Shown piece after piece: positions 4,063 to 36,401 of a stretch of 64,000 bases of DNA. The notes under the pieces were generated by a model. It was not told the DNA's origin and made no database searches. It saw nothing but the letters and a program-made list of their open reading frames with translations. The translations under genes were made by a program, and so were the position numbers. Numbering within the stretch: position 1 is the first letter of the stretch; each line of letters starts with the position of its first letter. This stretch comes from an uncultured Actinomycetes bacterium (lineage in GTDB: Bacteria > Actinomycetota > Acidimicrobiia > IMCC26256 > BP-133). Location: NCBI GenBank assembly GCA_963723985.1, contig CAVRTC010000005.1:567-64566 (forward strand). The letters run 5' to 3'.

Positions 4063-4199
4063 CGCAAAACGTTTGTTGCATCTCTTATCACACAGGCGGT
4101 GTCTCGACAGGAAAGAATCGGGAAGAAATCTGCTGCGTATCCGACTAAAACAAGAATGTTCCCGAGTGTGCCCGAGTCGATGAGCAGCCAAGGAGTCGT

Positions 4200-5980: not shown

Positions 5981-6021
5981 CGCGGATCTGCCGCCCGGTT
6001 CAATCGGGCGGCAGATCCGCG
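5981..6021. repeat. Perfect 17-bp-stem hairpin (REP-like extragenic palindrome)
   Basis: cgcggatctgccgcccg (5981-5997), loop gttcaat, cgggcggcagatccgcg (6005-6021); exact complement. Confidence 0.7.
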
Positions 6022-6153
6022 CAACCGAGTCCCGAAAGAGAGCACGCTGCCGGAGTGGGACATCTGCGCCTCTCCGCGCAATCCGCGGTCAAATTCTTCG
6101 CAGACGCAGGGAATTAGCACTTTAGCAACACCCGCTTAGGCGGGCGTATAGAC

Positions 6154-6912
6154 CTAATCGATCACGCCTGATCCAGGCAACGGCTGCGAATCGAGAAGAC
6201 AGGCTGTCATCAGGTTGTCCATGAGCCAGTTGGGGCCGGGCTGAGTTGCAGCGTGGCGAAAGGGCGGCCGGGTGAAGGACAGAGCCAGTTGCCCTGGATC
6301 CGGCGGGGCGCCGAGGCGGTTGAAAAGGCGGGTGGCCAGGGATTCAAATCGTCCGTCTTGCGCCGGAAATACCGTTCCACCAGGCCGGCCCGGCCGAGCA
6401 GGCGCGGCAGGGCGGATTCGGGTAGGCATAAACGTCGGCCTCGTACAGCGTCAGTTTCCCATCCTGCTCGACGGCTTCGACATCGATCAGCGCCAGGAAT
6501 TTTCCAAAAGACCGCTTCCCGCTGACCTGGTAGACGATTTCGAAGCGGCTCGACGCGGATCGTCGCGCGGTACAATTCACGGATCTGCGAGTAACGGCCG
6601 TTGGAAATGCGGTAGGTGTACGTGCCCGGCTGCACTTGCTGCATGGCGGTTCTGGAGTTTTCCAGGTTTGACGTGACGCGCGTGCTCGGCCTGCACAGTT
6701 TCCATCAACGAGCCACGTTGCAGAGTCGCGACGATGTTGCTGTAGGGAACGGCCAGTTGCCCGTGGCCTTGCACGAGGATGTACCGCCGGGACAGCACCT
6801 CGCGCACGTAGGCATTGGTGGCAATGCCCTCCAATGCCGGCCCCGCCAGCCCCGCGGAGTGAACCGCCAACAACAAAAACCCAGTGAGCAAGATACGCAT
6901 GAGCGATAGCAC
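6154..6912 (-). pseudogene. Secreted hypothetical protein, frameshifted
   Basis: N-terminal signal peptide MLSLMRILLTGFLLLAVHSAGLA (ORF 6577..6912). Continuation is readable in ORFs 6344..6934 (FEIVYQVSGKRSFGKFLALIDVEAVEQDGKLTLYEADVYAYP), 6210..6644 and 6154..6429. No family recognised. Confidence 0.4.
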
Positions 6913-6934
6913 ACGCCACCACGTGAGCCATCAA

Positions 6935-6957
6935 CTAGTGTCCTGAGTTACAAGTTC
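6935..6957. repeat. IS630 left terminal inverted repeat
   Basis: ctagtgtcctgagttacaagttc is the exact reverse complement of 8072-8094. Confidence 0.85.
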
Positions 6958-6959
6958 GC

Positions 6960-8047
6960 TCACAAACGGTTTACGGACAGCGTTTGAGGATTCAGTTCGG
7001 CACTTGCGGTCCAGATGAAGGGCTTGGGTTTTCGATTATGGGCGGATGTATTCATCAATGGCATCTTCAAGTGCGTGACAGCCGTGAAGACGCCTCGGCG
7101 GAGGCGTTGCTCGGTCAGCAAACCAAACCAACGCTCGACCTGGTTCAGCCACGAGGCGCTGCGTCGGCGTGAAGTGCGGTGAAACCCCGGGTGCGCGAGA
7201 ACCACGCTGAATTCGAGGTGCTTATGCGTCCCGTAGTTGTCCAAGACCAGGTGCAGCGCCAAGTCCGGCGGCACCGTGTCGTTAATGGTCTTGAGAAGGC
7301 GACGAACTCCTGGTGCCGGTGCCGCCGGTAGCAGTTGCCCGATGACCGCCCCGGTGGCCACGTCCAGGGCGCGCGAACAGCGACGTGGTGCCGTGCCGGA
7401 CGTAGTCGTGGGTGGCCTTCTCGGCCCGGCCCGGGAGCAGCGGCTGGATCGGCTGGGTGCGGTCCAGCGCCTGGACCTGGCTCTTCTCGTCGACGCACAG
7501 GACGATGGCCTTCTCGGGCGGGGCCAGGTACAGGCCCGACGACGTCCCGCACCTTCTCGACGAAGAACGGGTCGGTCGAGAGCTTGAACGTCTCGCGCAG
7601 GTGGGGCTTGAGGCCGAACGCCCGCCAGATCCGGCCGACGGCCGTCTGGGACAGGCCGGCCTGTTTGGCCATACTGCGTGTAGACCAATGGGTGCCCCGA
7701 GCCGGTTTGCTTTCCAAGGTCTTGGTGATGACCGATTCCACGGCACGGTCCGAGATGCTTCGTGGCGGCCCGCTGCGCGGCGCATCTCCCAGCCCTTGGA
7801 GGCGCTCACGCACGAATCGCCCACGCCACTTACACACCGTGGCCGCACAGACCTTCAGCTCACTCGCCACTTGGTCATTCAACTCAACCTCCGCACAACG
7901 CAGAATGATGCGGGCACGCAACGCCGTACGCTGATCGGTCTTGGGGCGTCGTGCCAGCATTTCCAACTTTCCGCGCTCTTCGGGGCTCAATATCAGTCCC
8001 GCTTTCGGTCTCATCAGGCCTCCATCGTAGGGGTGGAAGCGCAGCAT
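6960..8047 (-). pseudogene. IS630-family transposase split over three frames
   Basis: N-terminal HTH part [72 protein letters not shown] (7145..8047). Middle part [30 protein letters not shown] (7282..7848). C-terminal part LHLVLDNYGTHKH...WLNQVERWFGLLTEQRLRRGVF (6960..7688). Confidence 0.8.
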
Positions 8048-8071
8048 AACCAGAGCGGAATATTATTCAAT

Positions 8072-8094
8072 GAACTTGTAACTCAGGACACTAG
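8072..8094. repeat. IS630 right terminal inverted repeat
   Basis: gaacttgtaactcaggacactag is the exact reverse complement of 6935-6957. Confidence 0.85.
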
Positions 8095-8206
8095 GATGAG
8101 GCTTAAGCAACACACAAACAAGCGTGAACGGACTGGGCGGTGTCCGCAAGTTGCGAGATCCGTTGCAGGACACCGTCCGGGCTGGGGCAGTCGCGTTGCC
8201 AACGGG

Positions 8207-8488
8207 TCAATAGTCGAGATTCGCGCCAAACTCCGGTGTTTCACCCTTGTTCACCGATTCGCTCCAGGTGTCGAGGCGATCACCGCCCATCTTCCAGAAG
8301 GCGCGGCAAAGAACGGTGAAGTTTACTCCAGTACAACCTGGCTCTCGCCTTTCGCCAGGAGATCCTTGGCCAGCATGTCGGGCCGAATGAATCCATCTGC
8401 GGCGAGCCCTTGCTGCCGGCGGGAATGCGAGCAGGCGTTTCTTCGCCTCTTCCACATTGCCTTCCGACAGCGCGATCCGACCGAGCAC
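8207..8488 (-). pseudogene. C-terminal remnant of a TPR-like hypothetical protein
   Basis: LGRIALSEGNVEEAKKRLLA and the tail FWKMGGDRLDTWSESVNKGETPEFGANLDY lie in different frames. An upstream in-frame stop and an 8-bp hairpin (gtttcccc/ggggaaac, about 8509-8533) replace any N-terminus. Confidence 0.3.
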
Positions 8489-8789
8489 CTGGTCGTCCCC
8501 TCTCTACAAGTGTTTCCCCACTTGCATAGGGGAAACCCTTAGTACTAATTAAGGGAGGTTTGTCGTCAAATCCATTGACGCGCTCGCGTTGACACTCGAC
8601 CATGCCGACTCCGATTCTCGGGAGCATGATGGTAAAGATCGCTTGGTTCTTTGGTGGGCGCATCCACGACGAAAACAGCACCGGCTCAAGGTGTCTCCTG
8701 CGAATTCTTCAGCACACCTCCCCACATGCGCCGTCTTGCAATTTGTGCAGGGAGTTCTTTCACGTGAATCCCACAAGCGAGGAAGCCGC

Positions 8790-10583
8790 ATGAGAAAGCT
8801 CACGATGACGCTAATGGCGGTGCCGTTGTTGGTTGCCGCGACTGGCAGGGCGCAATGGGTAACCCAGCAAGTGGACTTGCAACCCGGTTGGAACGCGGTT
8901 TTCCTTGCAATTGACCCCGAGCCTTCATCGTGCGACTTGGTCTTCTCGAACCTTCCTTTTGCCGTGAAAATCGTGCTGACCTACAAGCAGGACTTTTCTT
9001 CCGTGGAGTTTATTTCCGAAACAAATGATGTCATTACGACCAGTGCCGAGTGGTTGCAGTGGTTTCCGACCACGGCCGAAATTAGCTTCAGCCGAAGCCT
9101 GTTCAAGCTCCTGCCCAACCGTCCTTATTTCGTAAAAGTGTCAACCGCAGCCACCGGCATGGTGTGGTCCGTCAAGGGCAGGCCAAGGTCCCGCGGAATT
9201 GATTGGCGTGAAAGCGCTTACAACCTTGCAGGCTTCCCGGTCAGCCGCACAATCCGCCGACGTTTGCAGCGTTTTTTGCGTCATCCCCTGCACATGCAGG
9301 GCAGGCGATCTACCGCATGAATTCGCAAGGCGCCTGGCAGCAGATTGCCAATCCCGCGTCCACCTCCATGCGGAATCTGGAAGCGTTCTGGATCCGCATT
9401 TCCGGCGGATCAGCATACCAGGGACCGCTGACCACATCCTCTGATGGTTCCGAAGGGTTGGCATTTGATCGCGTGTTAACAGAAGTTCCGCTGCGGATCC
9501 GAAATGGAAGCACAAACGCCCAAAAGGTGGTCATTCGACAGATTTCCTCAGAAAGCCCACCCGTGGGAGCTACTGACGAGCCGCTTCTGGCCGGCGCGTT
9601 CCCTTTTCGTATTGGGACCTGAAATCTACCAACGGTTGGGAATTGCTGCCGGCCATGCTCTCCGTCACGAATCTGCTGCCGGGGGAAGAACGGGAGATAC
9701 GGATCGCGGTGCGGCGCATGGACATGATTCCCTTCAGCCCCCCCGGGCCGCCAGGCGCTATACCAAAGCCTGCTCAAGATCACCGATCCGCAGGGAGTCT
9801 GGACGAGGTCGTATCCGTGAGCGCCTACGGCCTCCAATCGTTCGACACGCTTGGGAATCCATTGAGCCCGCGTGCGGGCCTGTGGCTCGGGAGTGCCACA
9901 CTGAAAAGCATCAACCAGCCTACCGGGGCGTTCGCGCCTGACACACCCACGCCGACCGCCCCGGGCGCGGAATTCAACTACCGTGTGATCGTCCACGTGA
10001 ACACCAATGGACAGGCCAAGTTGCTGCAGCATGTGCAGCTCATGTGGAAAGAGGGCACGCTCAAACCGGACCCGGAAAATCCTGACTTGCAGATCACCGA
10101 TGTAGGCGGCCGCTACGTGTTGATCGCGGACGACAGTCTGATTTCTGATTTTGTCGGCGCTTCCCTGCGAGACGGAGGAAACGGTGGGCCGCCGGATTCG
10201 TCCACTGCATTTGCGTTCAAGACCCAATACCCATGCAAGGTATTTTCGGCACCCCCAGCAATACGGTTTCTTGCAGTGTGCAGCTGGACTACCACGATCC
10301 GCTCAATCCTTTCCTGCACGCGTACCATCCGGATCATGACAGCCTGACTCCGAGTTTCGCGCCCACGAACAATGCCGAATCCTTTACGGTTGCGCGGGAT
10401 ATTGGAATGACGTTCTCCGCGCAGGATCCTGACGGCCTTGTACTGGCGGGGTGGGGCGATGATCAGGTAGGCGGCTTCTGGGACGAAACCATCACCGGGC
10501 TTCGGCACCAGACATTGTATGTCAAAGGGACCTTCCGGCTACAGAGGGTTTCGAGAGTCGGTGTGTTGAATGATGGTCTTTAG
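8790..10583 (+). pseudogene. Large secreted hypothetical protein, frameshifted (four ORF pieces)
   Basis: Signal peptide MRKLTMTLMAVPLLVAATGRAQ at 8790. Pieces are 8790..9320, 9317..9622, 9643..10347 and 10233..10583 (QLDYHDPLNPFLHAYHPDHDSL..FRLQRVSRVGVLNDGL). They read as one protein if shifts near 9300, 9610 and 10240 are allowed. Confidence 0.5.
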
Positions 10584-10629
10584 AGCGTGAGTGGACGTCG
10601 CCTGGGCGTTTCCCAGGAGGGGGAAGACG

Positions 10630-11700
10630 ATGCGGTTAACATTCGGTTTTGGCCTACGCATGCAATTTGCGGTCGCATTGGTACTGTTTTTGGGGCGGGC
10701 AGATATCAGTCTGGGGAGCATCCTCCACAAATACACTTCCTCTGGTAGTCCATAGCAACACGGTTGCGCAGGGCGGAAACCTGCTGCTGTTTGCTCCGCA
10801 TCTGACCGAGTTCTCCGGTGTGGCAACCTCGAGCTGGGCGGATTGCGCCTGGAAAGCGCCGGCACCCTTGGGCTGGGGGGGACGCTGGTCGCAACGAATA
10901 CCGCCGGACAACGTCTTGCCGTGGGACCGTTGCATACCACCAGGATTTCATTCGGAGACCGGTGAGTTTCAGCCCTGCCGTCAACTCGTCCGGGATTCAA
11001 ACGCAGGCCCAGGTGCGCGCCTGGCTGAACATGGGGCAGCTTGTAACCAATACCATCCGGAACGAAAACATCTGCCTGCGCAGCGACCAGATTCGGGCCC
11101 ATTGCGGCTGCCGTGACCTACAATCCCGCCACCACAAACGTATTGCTTGTTCCGGACCGGCCATTCCGGCCGGGTGAACGGCTGCATGTCGATTTTACCG
11201 CGCATGTACGCGACATTTTTGGTTTGCCGGCCAAACCGCATCCTGGGAGTTCCGGGCGGCGGTGGGCCCGGGCGGCGGCAACTTCTCGGCAAAGGATCTT
11301 CAATTTGCCGGGAACGAGCAAGGCGTGGCCGCTGGCGACCTGGACCGGGACGGCAACCTGGATGTCGTGATCGCCAGTGACGATACCGTGCAAATTCTAA
11401 GAAATTCAAATGGGGGACAGTTCGGCACGGAAAACACACTCCCAGGCCTCGACAGCGTTGCCGGCGTCGCGCTGGGGGACTTCAACGGGGACGGATGGCT
11501 GGACATCCTGATTTCGCGCGGCAATGGAGATCCCCATCTCCTGTTCCGAAATACGAACGGGCAGTTTTCATTGTTAGACAACAGCACCATCCCGAGCAGC
11601 GTGGGTGCGGGCAGTTACGGAATTGCGGTGGGTGATCTCAACGGCGACGGCTATCCGCTTCCTGCGTTCCCCCAGCATGAACGTGTTGTTCGCCGACCGG
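10630..11700 (+). pseudogene. Secreted FG-GAP/VCBS-repeat protein, frameshifted and apparently cut off at the compositional junction
   Basis: N-terminus MRLTFGFGLRMQFAVALVLFLG. Ig-like segment TYNPATTNVLLVPDRPFRPGERLHVDF. FG-GAP repeats GDLDRDGNLDVV, GDFNGDGWLDIL and GDLNGDG (ORF 11262..11723). No normal C-terminus before the GC jump. Confidence 0.6.
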
Positions 11701-11847
11701 CCGGTCGTTCCTGCCTGTCGTGACGAAACGGACGTTCGGCGGGGGCCGGACGGGGCGCAAACTTCTCATCAAGGATCGGGCTCGACGAACCGATACCCAA
11801 ATCAAGAGAGCGGACAAGGCGTTCTCCCTGTGGCCCTGGAGGCCCTG

Positions 11848-12033
11848 ATGGCTGAGAACGAGCTGCTCACCCCCGCCGAAGTGGCGGTCATGTTCCGCGT
11901 GAACCCCAAGACCGTCACCCGCTGGGCCCGCGCCGGCAAGATCTCGGCGGTCCGCACCCTCGGCGGCCACCGCCGGTTCCGGGCGACGGAGATCCGCCGC
12001 TTCCTCTCGGAGGCCCAGGACCTGCAGGCCTGA
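11848..12033 (+). CDS. bldC: BldC-like MerR/excisionase-type small DNA-binding developmental regulator
   Basis: MAENELLTPAEVAVMFRVNPKTVTRWARAGKISAVRTLGGHRRFRATEIRRFL closely matches my recollection of Streptomyces BldC (LLTPAEVATMFRVDPKTVTRWAKAGKL..IRTLGGHRRY). Confidence 0.85.
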   Translation: MAENELLTPAEVAVMFRVNPKTVTRWARAGKISAVRTLGGHRRFRATEIRRFLSEAQDLQA

Positions 12034-14362: not shown

Positions 14363-17300
14363 CTACAGAGCGGCCACCGAGACGACCGGGCGGGCCGGCG
14401 GGTTGGCGCCGAGGGAGCCGGCGAACGGCCTGGCTGGAGAAGTTGAAGATGCCGCCGTCCTCGCCGACCATCAGGTAGCCGTCGCCGAAGCGGACCATGC
14501 CGGTCACCGGCTTGTTGAGCGGTTGCGCCGCCCATCGAGCCCCGGAACGGGGCGTCGAAGGCGAAGATGCCGCCGTCGGAGGCGACCAGCCAGTAGCCGA
14601 GCCCGTCGCCGTCGGGCACCAGCGACTGCACCGGGGCGTTGAGCGTTCGTGCCGCCCATGGACCCGTGGAAGCGGGCGTCGCCGAAGGCGAAGATGCCGC
14701 CGTCGCTGGCCACCATGTAGTAGCCCCGGCCCGACGGCGTCGGGATGGAGTCGAGGACGGGCCCGTTGAGCGTCACGCTCGGCCATGTCGCCGTAGGACG
14801 CGGCGTCGCCGAAGGGGACGACCCGGCCCCGGGTGGTGAAGATCCAGTAGCCCCGGCCGGTGGGTGTGGCCGACAGGCTGGTGACGGTCTCGCCGGCCGC
14901 CAGCCCGCCGCTCACGCTGCCCGAGGCGGCGGCACGTCGCCGAAGGCCGACACGATGCCCCGCCCGTCCACGACCCAGTAGCCGGCACCGGACGGCGTGG
15001 GCTCGAGGTCGACGGCGGCGACCCCGGCCGGGACGGCGGCATGGCCGAGCCAGCGGGCGTCGCCGAAGGCGTAGACCGTGCCGCCGGCTCCGACCATCCA
15101 GTATCCGGACCGGACCGACGCCGAGTTGGCGCCGCCCCCAGGCCCGGGCGGAGCGGGCGGCGGCGGCGTGCCGCCGGCGGGATGTCGTGGGTGGCCGACT
15201 CGGGTCGTCGTCGTGGTGGTCGGCGTCGAACCGTGGGGCGGGTCGTCGGAGGCGAAGCGGGCGAAGCCCTGGGCCACCGCGCCGCTGACCTTGTGGAACT
15301 CCCCGGCCACGAGGATGGAGCCGGCGGTCACCTGGAGGTCGAGGACGCCGTGGACGCCGCTGATCGTCGGCGCCCAGGGCTGGATGGCCCCGGTGTGCTG
15401 GTCGAAGGCGGCCAGGTGGCCCCGCATCTGCCCGGCGACCGTGGTGAAGTGGCCGCCGGTGTAGACGTAGGAGGCGCTGGTGTCGACGGCCTGGAAGTCG
15501 CCGTCGCCGGGCCGGTCCCAGACGAGGGCTCCGGTGACGGTGCTCCAGGCTTGCAGCCGGTTGCCGATGACCTGGCCGCCCCGGGTGGCGACGAAGGCCA
15601 GCGCCCCGTCGCCCGACAGGGCCATCGACGTGAGCGGCACCGGCACCTTCGGGTGCCAGCCGGTGGCCAGCCCGGTGGTGGCGTCGATGGCCGCCATGTA
15701 CGACCGGGAGGCGTTGCCGACCGCCGTGAACGTCGCCGGCGACGTAGACGAGGCGGCCGTCGGCCGACAGCCGGATGCGGTGGACGCCGGCGTTGACGTT
15801 GGGGTTCCACCAGGGTCGACCGACCCGTTGGCGGTGGACAGTCGGCCGAGGCTGCTGCGGGCGACGCCCCCCAGCGTGCTGAACGCCCCACCGACGTAGA
15901 GCCGGTTGCCGGCCAGGACGAGGCTCTGGACCTCGGCGCTGGCCGTCGCCTCCCAGCCGGTGGCGACGGCGCCGGTGGCGGCTTCGAGGAGGGCGAGGCG
16001 ACGGCGGGTCACGCCGTTGACGGTGCTGAACACGCCGCCGGCGTAGAGGCCGACCCCGTCGGAGGTCACGGCCATGACCGCGCCGTTGGTGTCGGCCACG
16101 AACCCGGTGTCGAGGGCGCCGCTGGCGGCGTCGAGAGCGGCGAGATTGTTCCGGCGCAACCCGTTCACGCTGGTGAACTGGCCACCGGCGTACACCGACC
16201 CGCCGGAGGCGGCCAGGGTCATGGTGGCGGCCGCCGGGCGGGGATCGAAGCCGGTGTCGACGGCGCCGGTGGTGGCGTCGATCGCCACCAGTAGGCGGCG
16301 GGGAGCGCCGACCAGGGCCGGGTCGTCGTTGTCCTCCCCGCCGCCGGCGTAGAGCCGGGTGCCGTCGGCTGAAAGCGCCACAGTCCGTACCTCAACGTCG
16401 GCGCCGGGATCCCACGACGCGTCGACCGCGCCGGCGCCGGCTGTCGACAGCGCCGCCAACCGCCGGCGGGCGGCACCGCCGACGGAGGCGAAGTCGCCCC
16501 CGATGTACAGGCGGGCACCGTCGGCCGATAGCGCCAGCGCCCCGACGCGGCCGTCGGCACCGGCCCCCCAGGCGGGGTCGGCCGTACCGGCGGCGGTGAG
16601 AGCGGCCAGCTTGGGCTGGGGCCGGCCGGCGACGCGGCTGAAGTCGCCCCCGACGAAGACCCGGCCGCCGGGCGCGGCGGCGAGGGCCCGGACGGCCCCG
16701 TCGGCCCCGGGGTTGAAGGCGGCGTCGACCGCGCCGCTGGCCGGGTGGACGGCAGCCAGCCGGGAGCGGTTGTACCCGCCCAGGATGGTGAAGTCTCCGC
16801 CGACCAGGAGGCGGGATCCGTCGGCCGACAGGGTCAGGGCGAAGATGGAACCGAACCCCGAACCGGCGATGCCCCACACCGCTTCGCCGCTGTAGAGGTT
16901 GGTGGCGGCGAGGCCCCGGGTGGAGACGGGGACGGGCGCGTTGTTGACGACGGTGAAGTCGCCGCCGATCCAGGCGAGGTTGGCGCCCGACCCGCTGCCC
17001 AGCACGATGGCCCGCACGGCCCGATCGACGTTGGGGTTCCAGGCGCCGACGGTGCCGTCGGCCAGGATCCGGGCGGCGTTGTGCCGGGACCGGTCGCCGA
17101 CCCGGGTGAAGTCGCCGCCGATGTACCACCCGCCGGTGCCATCGGGCACCGCGACGTAGACCGGGCCGTTGACCCGGGGGAAGGCCGCCGAGCGAGCTCC
17201 GGTGGCGGGATCCAGCGGCACACCCGATCCCGTGGCGGGGCCGACCTGGTCGAAGCTGCCACCGAGGTAGATGCGGCTTCCGGTTGAAAAGACACTGTTC

Positions 17301-17491
17301 ACGTCGCCGTTGGCCACCCAGGTCTCGTCGGGGAGGTCGCTGACCGCCGCCTCCGCAACTGGGCCGGCCGCGGCGAGGCCGGCGGCGAGCACGGCGCCGG
17401 CCACGGCGGCACCCGTCCGCCGCAACCGGAAGCCACGGCGCCGGCGGGCGCGGGAGGTGAAGGCCGCGGCGCGGCCAATGAGCTGGTCCAC
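14363..17491 (-). pseudogene. Large secreted beta-propeller repeat protein with C-terminal GYW...DGGIFAFGDA repeats; several frameshifts
   Basis: GTG start after AGGAG, then signal peptide RTGAAVAGAVLAAGLAAAGPVAEAA. More than 12 repeats of the type GGDFT.V.G..R..LAAL (ORF 14912..17803). A compensating indel pair lies near 15735/15826. The tail has six blades (GYWMVGAGGTVYAFGDA, GRGYYMVASDGGIFAFGDARFHGSMGG, GLGYWLVASDGGIFAFDAPFRGSMGG..) spread over three frames from 14363 to 15140. Confidence 0.6.
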
Positions 17492-17514
17492 GGAATACTC
17501 CTGGGGGATTGAAC

Positions 17515-17545
17515 GGCCCGCCTCCCCGGGGGTCGGAGGCGGGCC
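17515..17545 (-). terminator. GC-rich 11-bp hairpin between the Thr/Pro-rich gene and the propeller gene
   Basis: ggcccgcctcc (17515-17525), 9-nt loop, ggaggcgggcc (17535-17545). No U-tract, so it may be an intra-operon attenuator or stabiliser rather than a classic terminator. Confidence 0.3.
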
Positions 17546-17559
17546 CGGTCGTCGGCGGG

Positions 17560-18405
17560 TCAGGCCGGCCAGTAGCGGCCGGGGCGGCGATCCCACCAGC
17601 GAAGGGCGACGCCGGCGGCCAGGGCCAACAGGATGAGCAGGCTCAGGCCGAGCAGCACCGCCGAGGACGGGGATGAAGTCTGGTCCCGGCCGGGGAGGGC
17701 CGCCTCGAGTTCGCCGGAGGGCGAGTCGCTGACGTAGCCGGCCGGGGCTAGGTGAAGGCCACCGACACCGAGGAGCCCGTCGAGGCTGGCGGCGTCGACC
17801 CAACTGGGGTCGGGGGAAGGAGCGGGGGTCTCGTCGGATGGGTTGCCGGGTCGGGTCGGTGACGGACGGGTGGTGCGACCCGACCCGCCGGAGGGGGAGG
17901 CGGCGGCGCCGGTTGAGGGAGAACCGGCGCCGCCGCTGCCAGCGGGATCAGGGGTCACCACCGCCCCGGACGGGGAGGGAGCCGGGGCGGCGTTGGTGGT
18001 CGGGCCCGGGCCCGTCGTCGTGGGGGACGACGACGGCCGGTTGGTGTTGTTCGATCGACCCGAACCACCCGAGCCGCGGGAGGTCGTGCTCGTGGTGGAG
18101 GTGTCCGGGCCGCTGGTGTCGGTTGTGGGGTTGGAGGTAGGGGTCGCCGGGTCGTCGGTATCGTCGTTCGGCGCCGTTGTGGTGGAGGTGGTCGAGGAGG
18201 GATCGACCGTGGTGGTGTCAGTGGTGGTCGGATCCGACGCCGGCTCGGTCGTGGGGGACGGCTCGAGCGTGGTCGACGTCGTGGCGGTGCCGTCGCCCGG
18301 GTCGGGGTCACCGAGGTCGGCGAAGGCCGGCGCGGCGGGAAGGCAGACCACCGTCAAGAAGATGGTGGTGAGGGCCAGGGCCCGCCGCAGGTGGCTTCGC
18401 AACAC
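17560..18405 (-). CDS. Secreted Thr/Ser/Pro-rich low-complexity surface protein with C-terminal membrane anchor
   Basis: Signal peptide MLRSHLRRALALTTIFLTVVCLPAAPAFA. About 200 aa of T/S/P/G/D-rich sequence. C-terminal TM segment plus basic tail AVLLGLSLLILLALAAGVALRWWDRR. Uninterrupted ORF. Confidence 0.6.
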   Translation of the reverse strand: MLRSHLRRALALTTIFLTVVCLPAAPAFADLGDPDPGDGTATTSTTLEPSPTTEPASDPTTTDTTTVDPSSTTSTTTAPNDDTDDPATPTSNPTTDTSGPDTSTTSTTSRGSGGSGRSNNTNRPSSSPTTTGPGPTTNAAPAPSPSGAVVTPDPAGSGGAGSPSTGAAASPSGGSGRTTRPSPTRPGNPSDETPAPSPDPSWVDAASLDGLLGVGGLHLAPAGYVSDSPSGELEAALPGRDQTSSPSSAVLLGLSLLILLALAAGVALRWWDRRPGRYWPA

Positions 18406-30161: not shown

Positions 30162-31345
30162 CCAAGAGCGAGGACCGGACGATCGACGAATGGGTGGCCG
30201 ACTTCGATCCGACCGATCCCCAGGTCGTCAAGAATCCCTACCCGATCTACGCCGCCATGCGGGCGAAGTGCCCGATCGCTCACGGCAGCCGGTTCGACGG
30301 CTTCTACGTGTTGAGCCGCTTCGCCGATGTGTACGACGCCGCCCACAACCCCGGGTTGTTCAGTTCGGCCCAGGGCGTGACGGTGCCGGACTTCGGCAAC
30401 CCGATGACGGCCATCCCCCTGGAGATCGACCCACCGGAGCACACCCGGTGGCGCCATCTGACCCAGGCGTGGTTCTCACCGGCGGCGGCGCTGACGCTCG
30501 AACCCGACATCCGGGCGATCGTGACCCGCCAGATCGACGCCTTCGTGGATCGGGGCCACGCCGATTTGGCCACCGAGCTGGCCGTGCCCGTCCCGCCGAT
30601 CGTGATCGCCCGCATGCTGGGCTTCCCCGAGCAGGACTGGCAGTACTACCGCAAGCTGTCGGAGACGATGCTGGAGGCGGCGGCCAACGACGACAGCCAG
30701 GTCAACGCCGAACAGGCGCTCCAGCTGTTCAGCTATCTGTTCGAGGCGCTGATGGACCGGCGCGACAACCCCCGGGACGACATGCTGACCCGGATCGTGC
30801 AGCTGGAGTTCGACGGCCGGCCCCTGACGGAGGACGAGCTCCTCGGGATCACGTTCCTCGTGGCCGTGGCCGGGCACGAGACGACGGTCGGGGCCATCGG
30901 CGCGCTGCTGCTCCGGCTGGCCGAACATCCCGAGGCCCGGGCGGCGATCGAGGCCGACCCGGAACTGGCCTTCAGCGCCATCGAGGAATCGATGCGGCTG
31001 GAGCCGCCCATCCAGTACTTCTCCCGGACCGTGACGCAGGACACCGAGATCGGCGGCGTGCGGCTGGCGGCCGGCGCCAAGGTCCTGCTGTCGTGGGCGT
31101 CGGCCAACCGCGATCCCGCCGCCTTCTCCGATCCCGATTCGTTCGTGTACGACCGCCCCAACAACCGCCATCTCGCCTTTGGGGCGGGCCCCCACCGCTG
31201 CATCGGCGCCCACCTCGCCCGCTTGGAGCTCCGGGTCGTGCTGGAGGAGATGTTGCGGCGGATTCCGACGTGGCGGGTCACCGGCGAGGTGATCATGGGC
31301 GGCGGAATCAACCGGCTGGTGAAGTCGCTCCCGGTCGAATGGTGA
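30158..31345 (+). CDS. Cytochrome P450
   Basis: Heme-binding loop FGAGPHRCIGAHLA, I-helix AGHETT, ExxR EESMRLEPP. ATGA overlap with the upstream ACAD. Confidence 0.9.
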   Translation: MTKSEDRTIDEWVADFDPTDPQVVKNPYPIYAAMRAKCPIAHGSRFDGFYVLSRFADVYDAAHNPGLFSSAQGVTVPDFGNPMTAIPLEIDPPEHTRWRHLTQAWFSPAAALTLEPDIRAIVTRQIDAFVDRGHADLATELAVPVPPIVIARMLGFPEQDWQYYRKLSETMLEAAANDDSQVNAEQALQLFSYLFEALMDRRDNPRDDMLTRIVQLEFDGRPLTEDELLGITFLVAVAGHETTVGAIGALLLRLAEHPEARAAIEADPELAFSAIEESMRLEPPIQYFSRTVTQDTEIGGVRLAAGAKVLLSWASANRDPAAFSDPDSFVYDRPNNRHLAFGAGPHRCIGAHLARLELRVVLEEMLRRIPTWRVTGEVIMGGGINRLVKSLPVEW

Positions 31346-31374
31346 GAGAGGCTCCTGCCTCGGCGGAAGGGCAG

Positions 31375-31998
31375 GTGAAGCTCCCAAGCCTGCGCACCCG
31401 GGCGCTGGAGGAGGCGCTGCGTATCGCCGACGCCGAGGGTCTCGACGCCCTGAGCATCCGGCGCCTGGCCGAAGCCCTCGGCGTGAAAGGCGCTTCGCTC
31501 TACCACCACTTCAAGGACAAGGACGAGATCCTCGACGGCGTCGCCTTCCTGGCGCTCTCCGGGCTCGGCCCGCCCGACGACGAGACGCTGCCGTGGATCG
31601 ACTGGCTGCTCCAGATGGCCGGCACCTACCGCGACGCCCTCCTCGCCCACCCCAACCTGCTCCCCCTGATCCTCGGCCGCCACAACCGCCGGGCCGGCTC
31701 GGCGGTCTACGACTACGCGGCGATGAAGCTGACCGAGGCCGGGATTCCCTCGGCCTATCAGGTGACGCTGATCAACGCCCTGGAGGCCTACGCCACCGGC
31801 TCGGTGCTCTACACATTGAACGCCCCTGCCTCGGCTTGGGAAGCTGAGCTGCCACCCGGCGGATGCGAGCACCTCCGCCGCGCCCTGCGGTCCGACGCCC
31901 ACGACGAAGACACCCGCTTCGAACTCGGCTGCCGGGCACTGCTGGAGGGTCTCGCGGCCGAGGTTACGCACGGTCGTCGCCCCCCCGCCCGCCGGTAG
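31375..31998 (+). CDS. TetR-family transcriptional regulator
   Basis: LRTRALEEALRIADAEGLDALSIRRLAEALGVKGASLYHHFKDKDEIL. Alternative GTG start at 31342. Confidence 0.8.
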   Translation: MKLPSLRTRALEEALRIADAEGLDALSIRRLAEALGVKGASLYHHFKDKDEILDGVAFLALSGLGPPDDETLPWIDWLLQMAGTYRDALLAHPNLLPLILGRHNRRAGSAVYDYAAMKLTEAGIPSAYQVTLINALEAYATGSVLYTLNAPASAWEAELPPGGCEHLRRALRSDAHDEDTRFELGCRALLEGLAAEVTHGRRPPARR

Positions 31999-32150
31999 CA
32001 GAGCCGCCCTCGCAAGAAAATTTTCGGGATAGCGGTTGATCGCGGGCGGAAGGCGCCACCAACCGGGCGCAAGGCTCAGATGACAGAGCCTCACCGGCTG
32101 GGGTCGGGGTGCCATGCGGGCGCCCGCGCCTTCAGACGGGAGGCGCGGAG

Positions 32151-33836
32151 GTGAGATCGGTGAAGCGACGATTTGTCCGGCGGGTGACGCCGAAGGCGCT
32201 GTTCGTGGCGCTGGCCGGCGTGACCCTGGTGGTGACGACGGTCGCGCAGGCCGACCTGCTGCCGCAGCGGGCCGTTTCGGTCGCCATGCTGTCGGGCGGC
32301 GACTCCGCCGCCCTGCCCGGCGCCGACACGGCCCTCCCCGCCCCGGCTCCCCCCGCCGAGGCGCTTCCGGAGCCGGAGTCGCCGCCGACGACCGCCGAAT
32401 CGACGACCACCACGGCCGCCACCAAGGTCGCCTCCACGGCCACAGCCCGGGTGGCCAAGCACCCTTGCCCCAAGACCTCGTCCCCGAACCGACCCTGCTC
32501 GCCGCCCTGCCCCCAACCCCGGCCAGACGGCAATTCTGAGAAGTGCCCCCCGCCCTGTCCGCAACCCGGCTCGGCCAACTCCGCCAGGGCGTGCCCGCCG
32601 CCCTGCGCCCAGCCAGCCGCTCCCCCCAGCGCCCCGCAGCCGGCCGCCTCGTCGGCCGGCGGTACGAGCCCCGCCCGGCCCGCCTGCCCTCCGCCCTGTT
32701 CGAGCACCCCCCGTTCGGACGGGTCGTGCCCGCCCTGCGGCCCTGAGCCGGCCAACTCGGAGCAGCCGACCAAGCCCTGCCCGCCGACCTGCCGCCAGTA
32801 CGACCCGGCCACCGGCGCGACCTCCCCCTGCCCGCCGCCCTGTTACGGATACGGCTCCGGCGGCACCACCGGCTCCCCCGGCAATACCTCTTCCGGTGCC
32901 ACGACCGAGCCCTCCGGCACGGCCGGATCGGGTGCCTGCCCCCCGCCCTGCCCGGAGTACGACGGCGGTGCCGCCAGCTCGGCCTACTCCTGCCCCCAGC
33001 CGTGCCCGGCCTACGCCACGACCGACGGGCGACCGGCCCCCTGCCCGCCGCCGTGCAAGTACGACCCCGCCGCCGGCGGTGGTTCGAGCTCCTGCCCGCA
33101 GCCCTGCCCGGCCTACGCCACGGCCGACGGCCGCCCGGCGCCCTGCCCGCCCCCCTGCTACTACGCCATGGACTCGGCCGCCGGCTCGGGCGGGTACGCC
33201 TGCCCGCCGCCGCCCTGCGCCTACCCGACCGAACCTGACGGCGGCACCGGTGCCACCGCCCCGCAGCCCATGATCTGGTGCCCGCCGCCGTGCTCCGCGG
33301 CCCCCGGGTCCCCCGACTCCTGCCCCCCGCCGTGCTACTCGACACAACCGGCGCCGGCGACCACCACCGCCGACCCGGTTCCGCCGAACAAGTGCCCCCC
33401 GCCGTGTCAGGGGCCGAAGGCGTGCCCGCCGCCCTGCCCGTCCGCCGCCTCGACCGACCAGCGCTGCGTTCCCCCCTGCAGCTACGAGCCGGCGAACAGC
33501 GGATCGGCGGCGGGGGCCTTCGCCCCCTGCCCGGCCCCCTCGGGAGTGACGGGCCGCGTCACGGCCGGCCCGACCTGCCCGGTCGAACGGCCCGACAAGC
33601 CGTGCCCCGACAAGCCGGTCGAGACCACCCTGCGCCTGCTGCGCAAGGACGGCTCCGTGGCGGCCACCGGCAAGTCCTACTCCGACGGCTCGTTCCGGAT
33701 GGCGGTGGCCCCCGGCTCCTACAAGCTCGTCGCGGACTGGCCCAGCCGGGTCGGCGGCTGTGCTCCGGTCGAGGTGACGGTCGAGCACGGCCGCTTCAGC
33801 TACGCCGACGTCAGCTGCGACACCGGCATCCGCTGA
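32151..33836 (+). CDS. Secreted CPPPC-repeat (C-x3-C) proline-rich protein with C-terminal carboxypeptidase-regulatory-like beta-sandwich
   Basis: GGAGG then GTG. Signal anchor VKRRFVRRVTPKALFVALAGVTLVVTTVAQA. 11 exact CPPPC plus 7 variants (CSPPC, CPPC, CPPTC, CPQPC x2, CPPPPC, CVPPC). C-terminus VTGRVTAG..LLRKDGSVAATGKSYSDGSFRMAVAPGSYKLV. Uninterrupted 561 aa. Confidence 0.6.
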   Translation: MRSVKRRFVRRVTPKALFVALAGVTLVVTTVAQADLLPQRAVSVAMLSGGDSAALPGADTALPAPAPPAEALPEPESPPTTAESTTTTAATKVASTATARVAKHPCPKTSSPNRPCSPPCPQPRPDGNSEKCPPPCPQPGSANSARACPPPCAQPAAPPSAPQPAASSAGGTSPARPACPPPCSSTPRSDGSCPPCGPEPANSEQPTKPCPPTCRQYDPATGATSPCPPPCYGYGSGGTTGSPGNTSSGATTEPSGTAGSGACPPPCPEYDGGAASSAYSCPQPCPAYATTDGRPAPCPPPCKYDPAAGGGSSSCPQPCPAYATADGRPAPCPPPCYYAMDSAAGSGGYACPPPPCAYPTEPDGGTGATAPQPMIWCPPPCSAAPGSPDSCPPPCYSTQPAPATTTADPVPPNKCPPPCQGPKACPPPCPSAASTDQRCVPPCSYEPANSGSAAGAFAPCPAPSGVTGRVTAGPTCPVERPDKPCPDKPVETTLRLLRKDGSVAATGKSYSDGSFRMAVAPGSYKLVADWPSRVGGCAPVEVTVEHGRFSYADVSCDTGIR

Positions 33837-33841
33837 CGAAC

Positions 33842-33882
33842 CACGATCTCTGTCTCTCAGGCAGTCACAAGACAGAATCGTG
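33842..33882 (+). terminator. Hairpin immediately after the CPPPC gene stop
   Basis: cacgat-c-tctgtct (33842-33855), 14-nt loop, agacaga-atcgtg (33870-33882): 13 bp with one bulge. No clear U-tract. Confidence 0.35.
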
Positions 33883-34077
33883 ACGGGGGCGTAGGATCGT
33901 GTGGACTCATCGGTCGACGCGGGAGGGCGCCGAGGTGGGCAGAAGTGGGCACCGCCCCAGATCCACGTCAGCGTCCTCGTCGACGACCCTGATCACACTC
34001 CGGACGTCGTCGTAATCATCCCCGCACTCCGCCGCGCCCCCGGGGGCGCGGCAATCATGTATTTGGGAGGGTCTTCA

Positions 34078-34983
34078 ATGCGCAGGTCCGCATCCGTCGT
34101 CGCCATCGTGATCACCACCGTCCTAGCCATGGGCACAGCCTTCGCTACGCCGCCGAGCGGCGACATCAAGTTCGAGGACTGGGCCCGCGTGCAGTCAGTC
34201 GATGCCGCCACCATCCCCATCAATGCCGGCTTCGACCTCGTCTCGGGGCAGTACTCGATTGCCTCCGGGGGCCAGACCGGGTGGCGCGAGCTGCCCGGCA
34301 CGATGATCCTCCTCGTCACCAAGGGAACGATGATGCTCCACGGCGGTGAAGGGTGCGCCGCCAAGGAGTTGGCCACGGGCAAGGGGACGGTCGTGGGGGG
34401 CGGCGTGTACTCGGTGCACAACGCCGGCAAAGAGCAGCTCGACTTCTTCGGCATGTTCCTGAAGCAGGCCCCCGGCTCTCCGCAGCCTCTCTCCGAGGGC
34501 CCGACCGTGGCGGCCCCGGCCGGGTGCTCCGGAGCACTGGCGGCCGAGCCCGGCGCGACTTCGGTGTCGCTCAAGACTCCGGCAGCGGGGACGTTCGTGG
34601 ACGCCCACTACACCGCCCACCACTCCGACTTCGAGGTCAAGAAGGACCTCGATGCCCTCGCCACGCACTACGACTTCGGCCCGGGGGCGAGCACCGGATG
34701 GATCTCGCACCTGCCGGCCCTGAACATCGTCGAAGAGGGCGAGTTGGGCTACGTCGAAGCCAAGGACGGCAAGTGCGACGAGAGCGAGACCTACACCGCC
34801 GGTGACGCCTTCTACCACCCGCCGCACCGCCACATCGCCTACAACCGGGGCCAGAGCCGACTCAAGCTCACGGTGGTCTTCTTCAACCTGCCGCACAACA
34901 CGCCGTTGCCGGTGATCGGGAACCAGACGACGGCGGTCGACTTCACCCAGGCGCCGCCGGCCGACTGCGTCCGGGCCCGTTGA
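34078..34983 (+). CDS. Secreted bicupin-like hypothetical protein
   Basis: RBS gggagg, then signal peptide MRRSASVVAIVITTVLAMGTAFA. Two beta-barrel-like halves (GWRELPGTMILLVTKGTMMLHGG..VYSVHNAG and GWISHLPALNIVEEGELGYVEAKDGKCDESETYTAGDAFYHPPHRHIAYN). The cupin assignment is tentative. Confidence 0.45.
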   Translation: MRRSASVVAIVITTVLAMGTAFATPPSGDIKFEDWARVQSVDAATIPINAGFDLVSGQYSIASGGQTGWRELPGTMILLVTKGTMMLHGGEGCAAKELATGKGTVVGGGVYSVHNAGKEQLDFFGMFLKQAPGSPQPLSEGPTVAAPAGCSGALAAEPGATSVSLKTPAAGTFVDAHYTAHHSDFEVKKDLDALATHYDFGPGASTGWISHLPALNIVEEGELGYVEAKDGKCDESETYTAGDAFYHPPHRHIAYNRGQSRLKLTVVFFNLPHNTPLPVIGNQTTAVDFTQAPPADCVRAR

Positions 34984-34985
34984 CG

Positions 34986-35387
34986 ATGGGACGTTCGCAC
35001 CGCCGGCAACTGTGGTTGCCGGCGGTGGCGGCCCTCTCGTTGCTCGGGCTTCCGGTCGCCGGCTCCTACGCCGCCGGCGACTGCAGTCCCAACGGCACGG
35101 CGCTGTCGATCACGGCCTTCGACCAGAAGTACGACAAGGACTGTCTCGCCGCGCCGGCCGACCAGCCCCTGACGGTCGACTTCAAGAATTTCGACCGCAA
35201 CATTCCCCACAACCTGGCGATCTACGAGGACAGCACGGCGGCCAAGGCACTGTTCAAAGGCGAACTGGTCGACGGCCCAGGCACGACGACGTACTCCGTT
35301 CCGGGTCTCCCGGAAGGAACGTTCGTCTTCCGCTGTGACCCGCACCCTGACACGATGAACGGCAGCTTCATCGTTTCAGGGGCGTAA
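34986..35387 (+). CDS. Cupredoxin (plastocyanin/amicyanin-like type-1 blue copper protein), secreted
   Basis: Signal peptide RRQLWLPAVAALSLLGLPVAGSYAA. Ligand set: His in NIPHNLAIY and Cys-His-Met in FRCDPHPDTMNG. Starts 3 nt after the upstream stop. Confidence 0.8.
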   Translation: MGRSHRRQLWLPAVAALSLLGLPVAGSYAAGDCSPNGTALSITAFDQKYDKDCLAAPADQPLTVDFKNFDRNIPHNLAIYEDSTAAKALFKGELVDGPGTTTYSVPGLPEGTFVFRCDPHPDTMNGSFIVSGA

Positions 35388-35390
35388 CCC

Positions 35391-36401
35391 TCAGTCGGGG
35401 CCGACGATCCAGACGTCGTCGCCGAGCTTCTCCTCCAGCGTCCGGACCAGCTTGCCCAGCGACGGGTCCTTCCCGTCCCAGACGACCACGGCTTCGTCGG
35501 CGTGCTTGGCCAGCCAGCCGTCGCGCCTCGCCATGGCCCCGCCGAACTTCTGCTTGGAGTCGGGAACGGTCCGCTCGAGGAGGACGGCGGCGTCGGCGTG
35601 GCGGATGAGCTCGGCGTAGTGGTCCTTCGTTGACGATGGCCACTGGCTTTCCGGCGCCGGGAAGGGCTGCACGGCCACGTAGGGCACACCCGCCTTCCGG
35701 GCCGCCTCGGCCGCCAGCTGCTCGGCCCCGAGCTGCAGGCCGGTCAATAGCCAGAGGTCGGCGTGCAGCTCCTTCTTGGCAGCCAGGATCTCGGCCAGGC
35801 GGTCCCGGACCGCGGCGGCCACCGGGTTCTCGCCGTAGCCCCCAAGCTCGGGCGGGCGGTGCCCGAAGGCCGCCACCAGCCGCCCGCCGGGGAGGCGGGC
35901 GTCCCGGCCGGCGGGCAGGTCGGCGGGGCCGAGGTCGTCCTCATCCGGCAGCGTGTCGCCGGACCGGCTCCGCTGCGTCAGGGACGCCTCCACCGCCAGC
36001 CGGTCGACCACGTCGTTCAGCCGGTCGTCGCTGTGGCCCTTGACCCAGGTGAATGAGATCTCCCCGGCCCGGCGCCGGTACTCCTCGATCAACGGCTCCC
36101 ACAGGTCCCGGTTGGCCACCGGCTTCTTCTGCTTGTTGAGCCAGCCCCGGGCCAGCCACCCCTCCCACCACCGGTCTCGGAAGCAGTTCACGACATAGGT
36201 GGAGTCGCTGCGGATCTCGATCGGGCCGTCGAGCTTGGTCAGCGCGTCCAGCACCGCCTTGAGCTCCATCCGCTGGTTGGTGCTCTTCGCCTCCGCCCCG
36301 CTCTCGAACGGTCCCGACGGCGCCACGGCCCAGGCCCAGCCGCCCGGCCCCGGGTTCCCCGAGCAGGCGCCATCGGTGTACACGACCTGCGGAGTGCTCA
36401 C
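35391..36401 (-). CDS. RNase HI fused to a C-terminal YpsA/DUF1273-like SLOG domain
   Basis: N-domain VVYTDGACSGNPGPGGWAW..NQRMELKAVLDAL..IEIRSDSTYVVN..VKGHSDDRLNDVVDRLA (DEDD plus His present). C-domain GHRPPELGGY..DLWLLTGLQLGAEQLAAEAARKAGVPYVAVQPFPAPESQWPSSTKDHYAELIRHADAAVLL matches the YpsA/DUF1273 pattern. Confidence 0.7.
   Translation of the reverse strand: MSTPQVVYTDGACSGNPGPGGWAWAVAPSGPFESGAEAKSTNQRMELKAVLDALTKLDGPIEIRSDSTYVVNCFRDRWWEGWLARGWLNKQKKPVANRDLWEPLIEEYRRRAGEISFTWVKGHSDDRLNDVVDRLAVEASLTQRSRSGDTLPDEDDLGPADLPAGRDARLPGGRLVAAFGHRPPELGGYGENPVAAAVRDRLAEILAAKKELHADLWLLTGLQLGAEQLAAEAARKAGVPYVAVQPFPAPESQWPSSTKDHYAELIRHADAAVLLERTVPDSKQKFGGAMARRDGWLAKHADEAVVVWDGKDPSLGKLVRTLEEKLGDDVWIVGPD

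Follow-up and report, generated by a model that had tools for sequence, protein, structure and literature searches.

A stretch of 64,000 nucleotides (nt) from contig CAVRTC010000005.1 (assembly GCA_963723985.1), referred to here as the window, comes from an uncultured soil actinobacterium and carries a gene for a long exported protein in whose linker region cysteines are paired across short runs of proline, most often as CPPPC. This gene (32160..33836, + strand; 558 amino acids (aa) plus stop) is followed on the same strand by a gene for a secreted cupin-like protein and by one for a type-1 copper cupredoxin, and then, on the opposite strand and convergent to it, by a gene for a fusion of RNase H and YpsA (SLOG) domains (35391..36401, - strand; 336 aa, with Pfam matches). 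An initial annotation, made from the sequence alone, had read the cysteine pairs either as copper sites of an extracytoplasmic metal sponge or chaperone serving the cupredoxin, or as disulfide staples that make a rigid stalk. It had also described the surroundings as full of frameshifts, which does not hold for the immediate neighbours: the genes directly flanking the locus, encoding an acyl-CoA dehydrogenase, a P450, a TetR regulator, the RNaseH-YpsA protein, a DinB/MDMPI protein and a second TetR regulator, are intact and have full Pfam domain sets.

The forward reading frame is open without a break over positions 32109-33836. When read from the start at 32151, it gives 561 aa with 42 Cys, which is the length proposed at first; the frame is indeed uninterrupted, but the translation start is probably the GTG at 32160, giving 558 aa, because a Shine-Dalgarno-like GGAGG (32147..32151, + strand; read from the sequence), which overlaps the start at 32151, stands 8 nt upstream of this GTG, and because most homologues begin at the equivalent M/V-Q-R-R-W. 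Another in-frame alternative start lies upstream at 32109. The GC content at third codon positions (GC3) is 0.91, and the coding status is backed by 17 homologues that differ through in-frame insertions and deletions, with ratios of non-synonymous to synonymous substitution rates (dN/dS) below 1. Two long open reading frames on the minus strand (32091..33788, 565 aa; 30733..33345, 870 aa) were rejected as Arg/Gly-rich mirror-frame artefacts of the GC-rich repeat coding sequence, because the forward frame has both this GC3 and conserved homologues.

The protein begins with an export signal (32160..32252, + strand), which consists of a basic n-region (KRRFVRR), a hydrophobic core of 17 aa and an AQA|D site fitting signal peptidase I; an A/S-x-A|D site is kept among the homologues. 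This N-terminus would be either a Sec signal peptide or an uncleaved signal anchor, so that the rest of the protein is predicted to be extracytoplasmic either way. A full-length AlphaFold2 (AF2) model built from a 14-sequence alignment showed a helix at residues 14-32, no secondary structure at residues ~33-460 (predicted local distance difference test score, pLDDT, <50) and a confident beta-sandwich at residues 465-555. The model and the alignments thus agree with the anatomy described earlier, namely a signal, a Cys/Pro repeat region and a carboxypeptidase-regulatory-like sandwich. Several other assignments were considered and rejected: lipoprotein anchoring (no lipobox and no Cys in the N-terminus), a sortase substrate (no LPXTG; this protein and all homologues stop right after CDTGIR), an anti-sigma factor (a cytoplasmic tail of only ~12 aa), and a ribosomally synthesised and post-translationally modified peptide precursor or a heme-binding CXXCH protein (it is a secreted protein of 558 aa without the required His).

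Between the signal and the sandwich lie a Cys-free, Ala/Thr/Ser/Pro-rich proximal tether (32253..32465, + strand; pLDDT <50), in which the alignment shows conserved RAVSVAMLSGGD and ESPPTT...TTTT segments, and the Cys/Pro array itself (32466..33530, + strand). The array contains 38 Cys, of which two stand singly and the others form 18 C-x(2-4)-C pairs; CPPPC accounts for 11 of these pairs. The array is 27% Pro and includes 1 His and 2 Met. A recount at the implied positions returned the 11 exact CPPPC motifs and the seven variants (CSPPC, CPPC, CPPTC, CPQPC twice, CPPPPC and CVPPC) listed in the initial annotation. In 20,000 shuffles of the 360-aa linker, 0.08 CPPPC motifs were expected (maximum 3) versus 11 observed, and 2.8 ± 1.6 CxxxC motifs (maximum 10) versus 16 observed; the motif pattern is not explained by the composition of the linker. 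Outside the repeat gene, only three isolated motifs of CPPPC type occur in all six frames of the window. The array includes a tandem duplication of 34 aa (102 nt; 32991..33194, + strand), which Tandem Repeats Finder also detected and which the nucleotide comparison bears out. Its two copies (32991-33092 and 33093-33194) are identical at 77 of 102 nt, and the core CPQPCPAYAT[T/A]DGRPAPCPPPC is identical at 21 of 22 residues, with seven synonymous differences and one non-synonymous difference in the 22 codons. The central units are regularly spaced (Cys gaps of 4,13,4,13,4,13,4), the pairs stand 10-30 residues apart along the chain, and Tyr is frequent after the motifs. The fully extended tether would reach ~130 nm.

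The C-terminal domain (33540..33833, + strand) is a predicted 7-strand beta-sandwich of transthyretin-like, CnaB-like or CarboxypepD_reg-like type, with four invariant Cys and the invariant end CDTGIR. An AF2 model of residues 454-561 (the last 108 residues alone, 69 homologues) reached a pLDDT of 89.5 and showed seven strands. Using this model as a Foldseek query, we recovered the B domains of UafA and SdrD, CnaB2, the pilins GBS52 and SpaA, and the transthyretin-like domain of carboxypeptidase D (E about 4e-4 to 3e-3, template modelling (TM) scores about 0.55-0.7); the target-normalised TM scores were 0.71 for the carboxypeptidase D domain (5aq0) and 0.66 for CnaB2 (8bdw). The original designation as carboxypeptidase-regulatory-like therefore stands at the level of fold, but not as a family match: hmmscan found no Pfam family for the window protein at E<=1, the NCBIfam scan was likewise empty, and PF13620 is assigned solely to homologues, many of which carry it, which makes the assignment transitive. 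Sequence searches of the Protein Data Bank (PDB) with the C-terminal profile and with the linker yielded nothing meaningful. The window sandwich shares its fold with the CnaB, B-repeat and transthyretin-like domains of these Gram-positive surface proteins, in which such domains serve as stalks or spacers, and with carboxypeptidase D, but it has only 12-18% identity to them, comes without LPXTG and sits distally rather than in a stalk array.

More than 3,874 proteins match a profile of 11 such C-terminal domains (E<=1e-3), and their identity to the domain of the window protein is 40-88%; in 69 sandwich sequences, G15, P21, C23, P24, C32, G60, G106 and R108 are invariant. A scan of species genomes placed relatives in Sinomonas, many Acidimicrobiales, Chloroflexota, Solirubrobacterales, Dormibacterota and Patescibacteria, the family being found mainly in Actinomycetota and Chloroflexota. 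Its typical members are small lipoproteins of 90-200 aa. Upstream sequence was available for 67 members; a lipobox-like motif is present in 49 of these, and the tether is free of Cys in 57, while those with at least four Cys are mostly fragments of the Cys/Pro clade; the median tether is 35 aa long and consists to ~76% of Ser, Thr, Pro, Gly and Ala. These tethered PF13620-type lipoproteins ('SGVxGxVxAGPTCPV...CDTGIR'; e.g. in Sinomonas) have the same plan as the window protein, with an export signal, a low-complexity tether and a beta-sandwich, and a homologous C-terminal domain with four invariant Cys and an equally invariant C-terminal GIR. They differ from it in having a lipobox and a Cys-free tether of ~35 aa, whereas the window protein has no lipobox and a tether of ~430 aa with 38 Cys. 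On this comparison, the repeat protein belongs to a family of tethered beta-sandwich proteins that is known but uncharacterised, and it is the tether that has been transformed in it.

The array itself has a far narrower distribution. A full-length search returned the 17 homologues, all unnamed or annotated as "hypothetical protein"; those with a source label come from metagenome-assembled genomes of Acidimicrobiia, and all derive from metagenome assemblies, with three of them (P0010, P0012 and P0017) visibly frameshifted. When the repeat region alone was searched exhaustively with HMMER against 1.84 billion representative proteins, three matches were returned, all in the same family, and among 185,579 species genomes ~7 have a match that runs into the repeat region; in such searches, low-complexity sequence lowers the sensitivity and distorts the E-values. 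By these counts, the Cys/Pro array is confined to one narrow clade of uncultured Acidimicrobiia and is not a module reused on other proteins. This also agrees with the earlier impression that the architecture belongs to no described family, as the repeat protein has no sequence match in Pfam, NCBIfam or the PDB and no match in the literature, where a full-text search for CPPPC returned unrelated acronyms and one immunoglobulin G (IgG) paper.

Within the clade, the homologues vary chiefly by in-frame gain or loss of whole units, ranging from 349 to 561 aa and from 11 to 38 linker Cys, and the window protein has the longest array (~360 aa, 18 pairs). One explanation to be weighed here is neutral low-complexity expansion, that is, slippage in a GC-rich linker whose only role is that of a flexible spacer. 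The varying repeat number among close relatives fits it, as do the frameshifted metagenomic copies, the lack of linker structure in the AF2 model and the dN/dS values calculated against four orthologues, which are higher in the linker (0.42-0.54) than in the sandwich (0.13-0.33). However, Cys codons (TGC/TGT) are not favoured by GC-rich slippage, and yet identity in the aligned linker columns reaches 85% for Cys and 84% for Pro, versus 46% for other residues. In each homologue, the Cys gaps are short (3-8) and long (>=9) by turns, so that the paired arrangement is kept throughout; the number of linker Cys is even in 11 of 14 homologues; and tethers elsewhere in the family have no Cys. Moreover, the frameshifted copies stem from error-prone assemblies, in which the neighbouring genes are fragmented too. 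The dN/dS values, together with the 7:1 ratio of synonymous to non-synonymous changes in the old internal duplicate, indicate that the Cys/Pro skeleton and the units CPQPCPAxATADGxPAPCPPP, CPPPPCAYPTEPDGG and PPPCPSAAPTDQxCxPPC...FAPC are under selection, while the filler between them drifts. Neutral expansion is disfavoured by this conservation pattern, and we regard it as improbable. What appears new is the linker specialisation, which is unusual, clade-restricted and evidently selected; the overall plan of the protein is ordinary.

We next consider whether the repeat gene is tied to the copper genes beside it, as the copper sponge or chaperone reading requires; in that reading, the Cys pairs would be thiophilic Cu sites that supply or buffer the adjacent cupredoxin, and perhaps the cupin. 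Several features make it attractive: the three genes lie close together on one strand (the repeat gene ends at 33836, the cupin gene starts at 34078 and the cupredoxin gene at 34986), an export signal is found on each of the three proteins, the type-1 Cu site of the cupredoxin is complete, and the 38 conserved linker Cys come in pairs. Recurrent linkage to cupredoxin or cupin genes, on which the initial annotation had staked this proposal, was not found. A cupredoxin homologue is present in none of the 14 Cys-Pro-repeat loci (fetched flanks), and tblastn with the window cupredoxin gave no match in 87 family loci. With the window cupin as query, one weak single-domain match was obtained, in locus L004, 5 kb from the repeat gene. 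In eight loci (L001, L003, L004, L005, L006, L009, L010 and L011), including the one most syntenic with the window (L005, which shares with it the upstream acyl-CoA dehydrogenase, P450 and TetR genes), the repeat gene is directly followed by the convergent RNaseH-YpsA gene, and the slot between the two, at 33837..35390 in the window, measures 9-180 bp. In L008, this slot holds an unrelated 607-aa flavoprotein with a twin-arginine translocation (Tat) signal, similar to FAD amine oxidases and encoded on the other strand; in the window, it holds the cupin-cupredoxin pair. The RNaseH-YpsA protein is 85-89% identical across the clade, and its gene adjoins the repeat gene in nine loci, always convergently. 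Clustering of gene neighbours at 86 loci of the sandwich family showed no conserved partner besides this clade-specific gene.

Conversely, a metagenome scan with the cupin gave 18 loci (L088-L105; 52-64% identity, GC 0.67-0.74), in all of which a cupredoxin homologue (57-71% identity) lies downstream of the cupin gene within 0-130 bp, and in none of which the repeat gene or the RNaseH-YpsA gene is present. The flanks of these loci are not conserved, and clustering them revealed no consistent partner. The cupin and the cupredoxin form a separate, self-contained and conserved two-gene module. Judging from these comparisons, the pair appears to fill a variable slot by chance and not to be functionally tied to the repeat protein. 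Within the window, moreover, 240 bp lie between the repeat gene and the cupin gene, and this spacer holds a GC palindrome as well as the cupin gene's own Shine-Dalgarno sequence. In addition, His and Met ligands are nearly absent from the linker, and the rigid spacers of three to seven prolines differ in length. The reading of the protein as a metal sponge for the cupredoxin fails because it lacks recurrent linkage to cupredoxin or cupin genes, and we consider it very improbable.

The array might still act as a set of thiols in its own right, unrelated to the neighbouring genes, either buffering or sensing soft metals (Cu(I), Cd, Hg, Zn or As) outside the cytoplasm or serving as a sacrificial redox or electrophile sink; each site could comprise the four Cys of two adjacent motifs (C-x3-C-x12/13-C-x3-C). 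The strong conservation of the Cys, the regular central gaps and the purifying selection on the CPQPCPAYATxDGRPAPCPPPC unit would suit such a role. So would a weak AF2 prediction of a beta-bridge around the T/A-D-G turn of both duplicated units (residues 289/295 and 323/329), which is compatible with hairpins that join two motifs. However, the within-pair spacing varies from 3 to 8 among the homologues, whose motifs range between CP3C and CP7C, and many of them have arms of different length in the conserved CPQPC...CP(3-7)C unit; a defined four-Cys site should not tolerate such changes in its second arm. Fixed chelate sites, like ladders of two-disulfide hairpins, are disfavoured because the within-pair spacing drifts in this way and the unit arms are often unequal. 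The neighbour clustering showed no conserved metal-resistance or thiol-reductant genes nearby, and exported Cys of aerobic Actinobacteria are generally oxidised (PMC2823432). Taken together, we judge this thiol role unlikely, if somewhat less so than neutral expansion.

Comparison with characterised metal stores and chaperones points in the same direction. MymT, SmtA, Csp and Sco likewise have a high Cys count, Csp1 and Sco are also extracytoplasmic, and the CxxxC spacing of Sco is formally the same. The window protein, however, has no sequence or Pfam similarity to them and does not resemble the motifs of metallothioneins or Csp; clusters of the CxC, CC or CxxC kind are missing from it, as are a helical bundle and a thioredoxin fold, and its array differs in having rigid inter-Cys prolines of variable number and no conserved metal-gene context. 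Twin-CX3C proteins of the small Tim type, in which CX3C-X(11-16)-CX3C is carried on two antiparallel alpha-helices, offer another formal parallel, since C-x3-C-x12-C-x3-C is present in the array; the array is, however, Pro-rich and without predicted helix. A hairpin ladder of twin-CX3C type was downgraded as a candidate because the arm lengths are unequal in many homologues. By these sequence comparisons, the repeat protein is none of the following: a metallothionein or Csp, a minicollagen cysteine-rich domain, a sortase-anchored CnaB adhesin, or a twin-CX3C protein.

The evidence seems to be best accommodated by the second option of the initial annotation, disulfide staples that make a rigid stalk. 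Exported proteins of aerobic Actinobacteria are disulfide-bonded and biased towards even Cys numbers, with an average of ~2.2 Cys (PMC2823432); with 42 Cys, the repeat protein stands far above that average. We propose that the family displays its four-cysteine sandwich outside the cytoplasmic membrane on a low-complexity linker, the repeat protein being an exported cell-envelope protein, and that in a narrow clade of Acidimicrobiia the lipobox was replaced by a Sec-type signal or signal anchor, while repeated duplication of units would have turned a Cys-free Ser/Thr/Pro linker of ~35 aa into a proline-rich rod with C-P(3-7)-C pairs. The array Cys, lying in the oxidising exoplasm of an aerobic actinobacterium, would be disulfide-bonded rather than metal-loaded. 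In-register, parallel self-association could then join identical chains by a ladder of disulfides, as happens in the hinges of IgG1 and IgG3, or the chains could be cross-linked to their neighbours, as in minicollagens. The outcome would be a stiff stalk that lifts the beta-sandwich up to ~100 nm off the membrane. In-register parallel pairing is favoured here because identical chains accommodate changes in spacing automatically. That the array is a disulfide-bonded structural stalk, in the manner of an IgG hinge or a minicollagen, is a proposition to which we give about an even chance; its disulfide state, oligomerisation and stalk role are inferred.

Geometry also bears on how the cysteines could be joined. 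An all-trans polyproline II helix rises 3.1 angstroms per residue. In such a helix, the two Cys of a CPPPC motif would stand ~12 angstroms apart, which would be too far for a disulfide within the motif or for a shared metal ion without a cis-Pro turn. In antibody hinges, the Cys form in-register, parallel inter-chain disulfide ladders that act as a stiff spacer between globular modules. The hinges of IgG1 (CPPCP) and IgG3 (CPRCP(EPKSCDTPPPCPRCP)x3) likewise carry their Cys within polyproline-type segments, without homology to the array, but with a Cys spacing of i, i+3 instead of i, i+4; IgG3 has 11 disulfides over 62 aa, whereas the window array would have at most 19 over 360 aa. The second parallel is with cnidarian minicollagens, whose cysteine-rich domains (CXXXCXXXCXXXCXXXCC, flanked by polyproline) mediate disulfide-dependent assembly of a tough extracellular structure (PMC4195985, PMC6989532). 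CX3C and polyproline are common to these domains and the array, again without homology. The minicollagen domains are, however, compact six-Cys terminal domains around a Gly-X-Y collagen core, while the pairs of the window array are dispersed, with no consecutive CX3C, no Gly-X-Y and no CC.

The minicollagen precedent for CX3C and polyproline as a cross-linking module leads to a related explanation, in which secreted monomers are disulfide-bonded to each other or to envelope proteins and form a sheath or matrix rather than discrete stalks; such a material would resemble minicollagens, keratin-associated proteins or the cysteine-rich proteins of spore coats. The AQA|D site, which suggests release from the membrane, the loss of the lipobox of the wider family, the abundance of Cys on an extended unstructured chain and the Tyr that often follow the motifs are all consistent with it. 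On the other hand, the conserved globular C-terminal domain and the membrane-tethered relatives suggest a displayed module, and no partner proteins with similar motifs occur in the window. This explanation overlaps in part with that of a stalk, and sequence alone cannot separate the two; we rate it as unlikely overall, though it is the nearest competitor among the alternatives.

Several points weigh against the disulfide-bonded stalk. The Cys of CPPPC, at i and i+4, lie 120 degrees apart in an ideal polyproline II helix, while those of the IgG motif CPPC, at i and i+3, share one face, so that the hinge analogy is imperfect. A tether of ~130 nm when extended exceeds any cell wall, so that a simple spacer across the wall has no obvious use. 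Cleavage of the signal peptide would leave the protein with no identified means of staying on the cell. The even-Cys bias (11/14) is weak, was seen in sequences that are related to each other and is nothing that the in-register model would need, and the conservation figures are somewhat inflated, as repeat alignments are error-prone, the scoring matrix favours C-C matches and the homologues are not independent. The full-length AF2 model is uninformative on the linker, where its confidence is low, and its low-confidence beta-bridge hints that local hairpins in the array remain compatible with the prediction. No conserved neighbour hints at the role of the sandwich.

A bolder form of the stalk proposal would make the array an undescribed bacterial element: a polyproline-type rod of up to ~100 nm, on which ~19 Cys positions form an in-register inter-chain disulfide ladder or a cross-linked lattice. 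We regard this as possible but doubtful, with roughly one chance in four. An even more unusual variant would be an array kept reduced as an extracytoplasmic buffer for soft metals or redox equivalents. If a disulfide ladder on a polyproline rod is indeed present, it would be a bacterial counterpart of the antibody-hinge or minicollagen architecture, reached by convergence with antibody hinges and cnidarian minicollagens, and would provide a covalently braced surface stalk or sheath. It would also represent a simple, rigid spacer that is genetically tunable in length and redox-switchable, which may be relevant to the envelopes of uncultured Acidimicrobiia and to protein materials. The practical weight is modest: the finding concerns a narrow clade of uncultured organisms and is not connected to any phenotype or pathway. 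In a wider sense, the analysis points to a very large and entirely uncharacterised family of tethered beta-sandwich lipoproteins, and it replaces a three-gene copper story by a cupin-cupredoxin module of its own, which is probably an extracytoplasmic redox enzyme with its electron-transfer partner.

As for the members of that module, the cupin-like protein (34078..34983, + strand; 301 aa) has an A-x-A signal peptide and matches to Pfam Cupin_1 and Cupin_2 in its C-terminal half. It had been described as a two-barrel protein. The C-terminal barrel scores 23.0 bits with Cupin_1, above the cutoff of 22, and 24.5 bits with Cupin_2, below the cutoff of 27.2, while the N-terminal barrel is plausible rather than proven, as its matches are weak (2fqp at E=0.38). 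Both halves match the one single-domain cupin of L004 (E 3e-4 and 8e-6). Across 11 homologues, His114, 211, 247, 250, 252 and 273 and four Cys are invariant. When compared with the canonical cupin metal motif (G(X)5HXH(X)3-4E(X)6G with G(X)5PXG(X)2H(X)3N), the C-terminal barrel shows H211 and an H247-x2-H250-x-H252...N cluster in place of the canonical HXH...E, and the N-terminal barrel has only H114.

The cupredoxin gene (34986..35387, + strand; alternative TTG start at 34980) encodes a Tat-signal protein that exceeds the Pfam cutoffs of both Cupredoxin_1 (30.7 bits, cutoff 27) and Copper-bind (23.3 bits, cutoff 21.2). Its ligands, the His of PHN and the following Cys, His and Met, are in register with those of plastocyanin (1pla, 2plt) and amicyanin, and H75, C117, H120 and M124 are invariant in 12 homologues, so that the complete type-1 Cu ligand set noticed earlier is upheld by alignment. 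Two further Cys and a twin-arginine RSHRRQL(W/L)LPAV signal are also kept in these 12 proteins, most of which have the amicyanin-like C-x2-H-x2-M spacing; the window copy is one residue longer. It is a reasonable inference from these sequences that the cupin and the cupredoxin, its partner, represent an exported metallo-oxidoreductase and a blue-copper electron partner. A literature search for a cupin-cupredoxin operon or pair found nothing relevant.

The 240-bp spacer upstream of the cupin gene includes a perfect 20-nt GC palindrome, CCGCGCCCCCGGGGGCGCGG (34032..34051, strand-neutral), 27 nt upstream of the cupin start codon, followed by a GGGAGGG Shine-Dalgarno sequence (34065-34071) and the ATG; the palindrome could be an operator or a hairpin. 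A scan of 31300-35800 for consensus promoters and terminators gave no sites. In other loci, the slot downstream of the repeat gene contains, once or twice, a hairpin-forming repeat of ~45 nt (AACCGGCGTTCC...CAGCGGA[A/T]AA[C/G]GAACGCCGGTT; L009:1153-1330, L011:1932-2100 and L001:9579-9667), which is absent from the window and resembles a repetitive extragenic palindromic (REP) or miniature inverted-repeat transposable (MITE) element, or a bidirectional terminator.

Elsewhere in the window, an Rfam scan gave nothing, and a doubtful 97-nt tRNA-Ala call (5004..5100) was the sole result of the tRNA scan. Positions 1..12000 have a GC content of 0.57-0.63, versus 0.70-0.75 elsewhere, and few open reading frames recognisable by Pfam, with a fragment of an IS630-type HTH transposase (7145..8047, - strand) and a right-handed beta-helix protein (1965..3284, - strand) among their contents. 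This part may represent an island of foreign DNA, a mobile region in decay or a chimeric join made during assembly, and the earlier remark on frameshifts could apply only to this low-GC, transposase-bearing 1-12 kb. Finally, 14912..17803 (- strand) encode a 963-aa beta-propeller protein of DUF5122/Rax2 type with a GC-rich second codon position, large homologues of which are encoded in L003, L004 and L006, upstream of the repeat gene by a few kb and beside Ser/Thr-rich membrane proteins.

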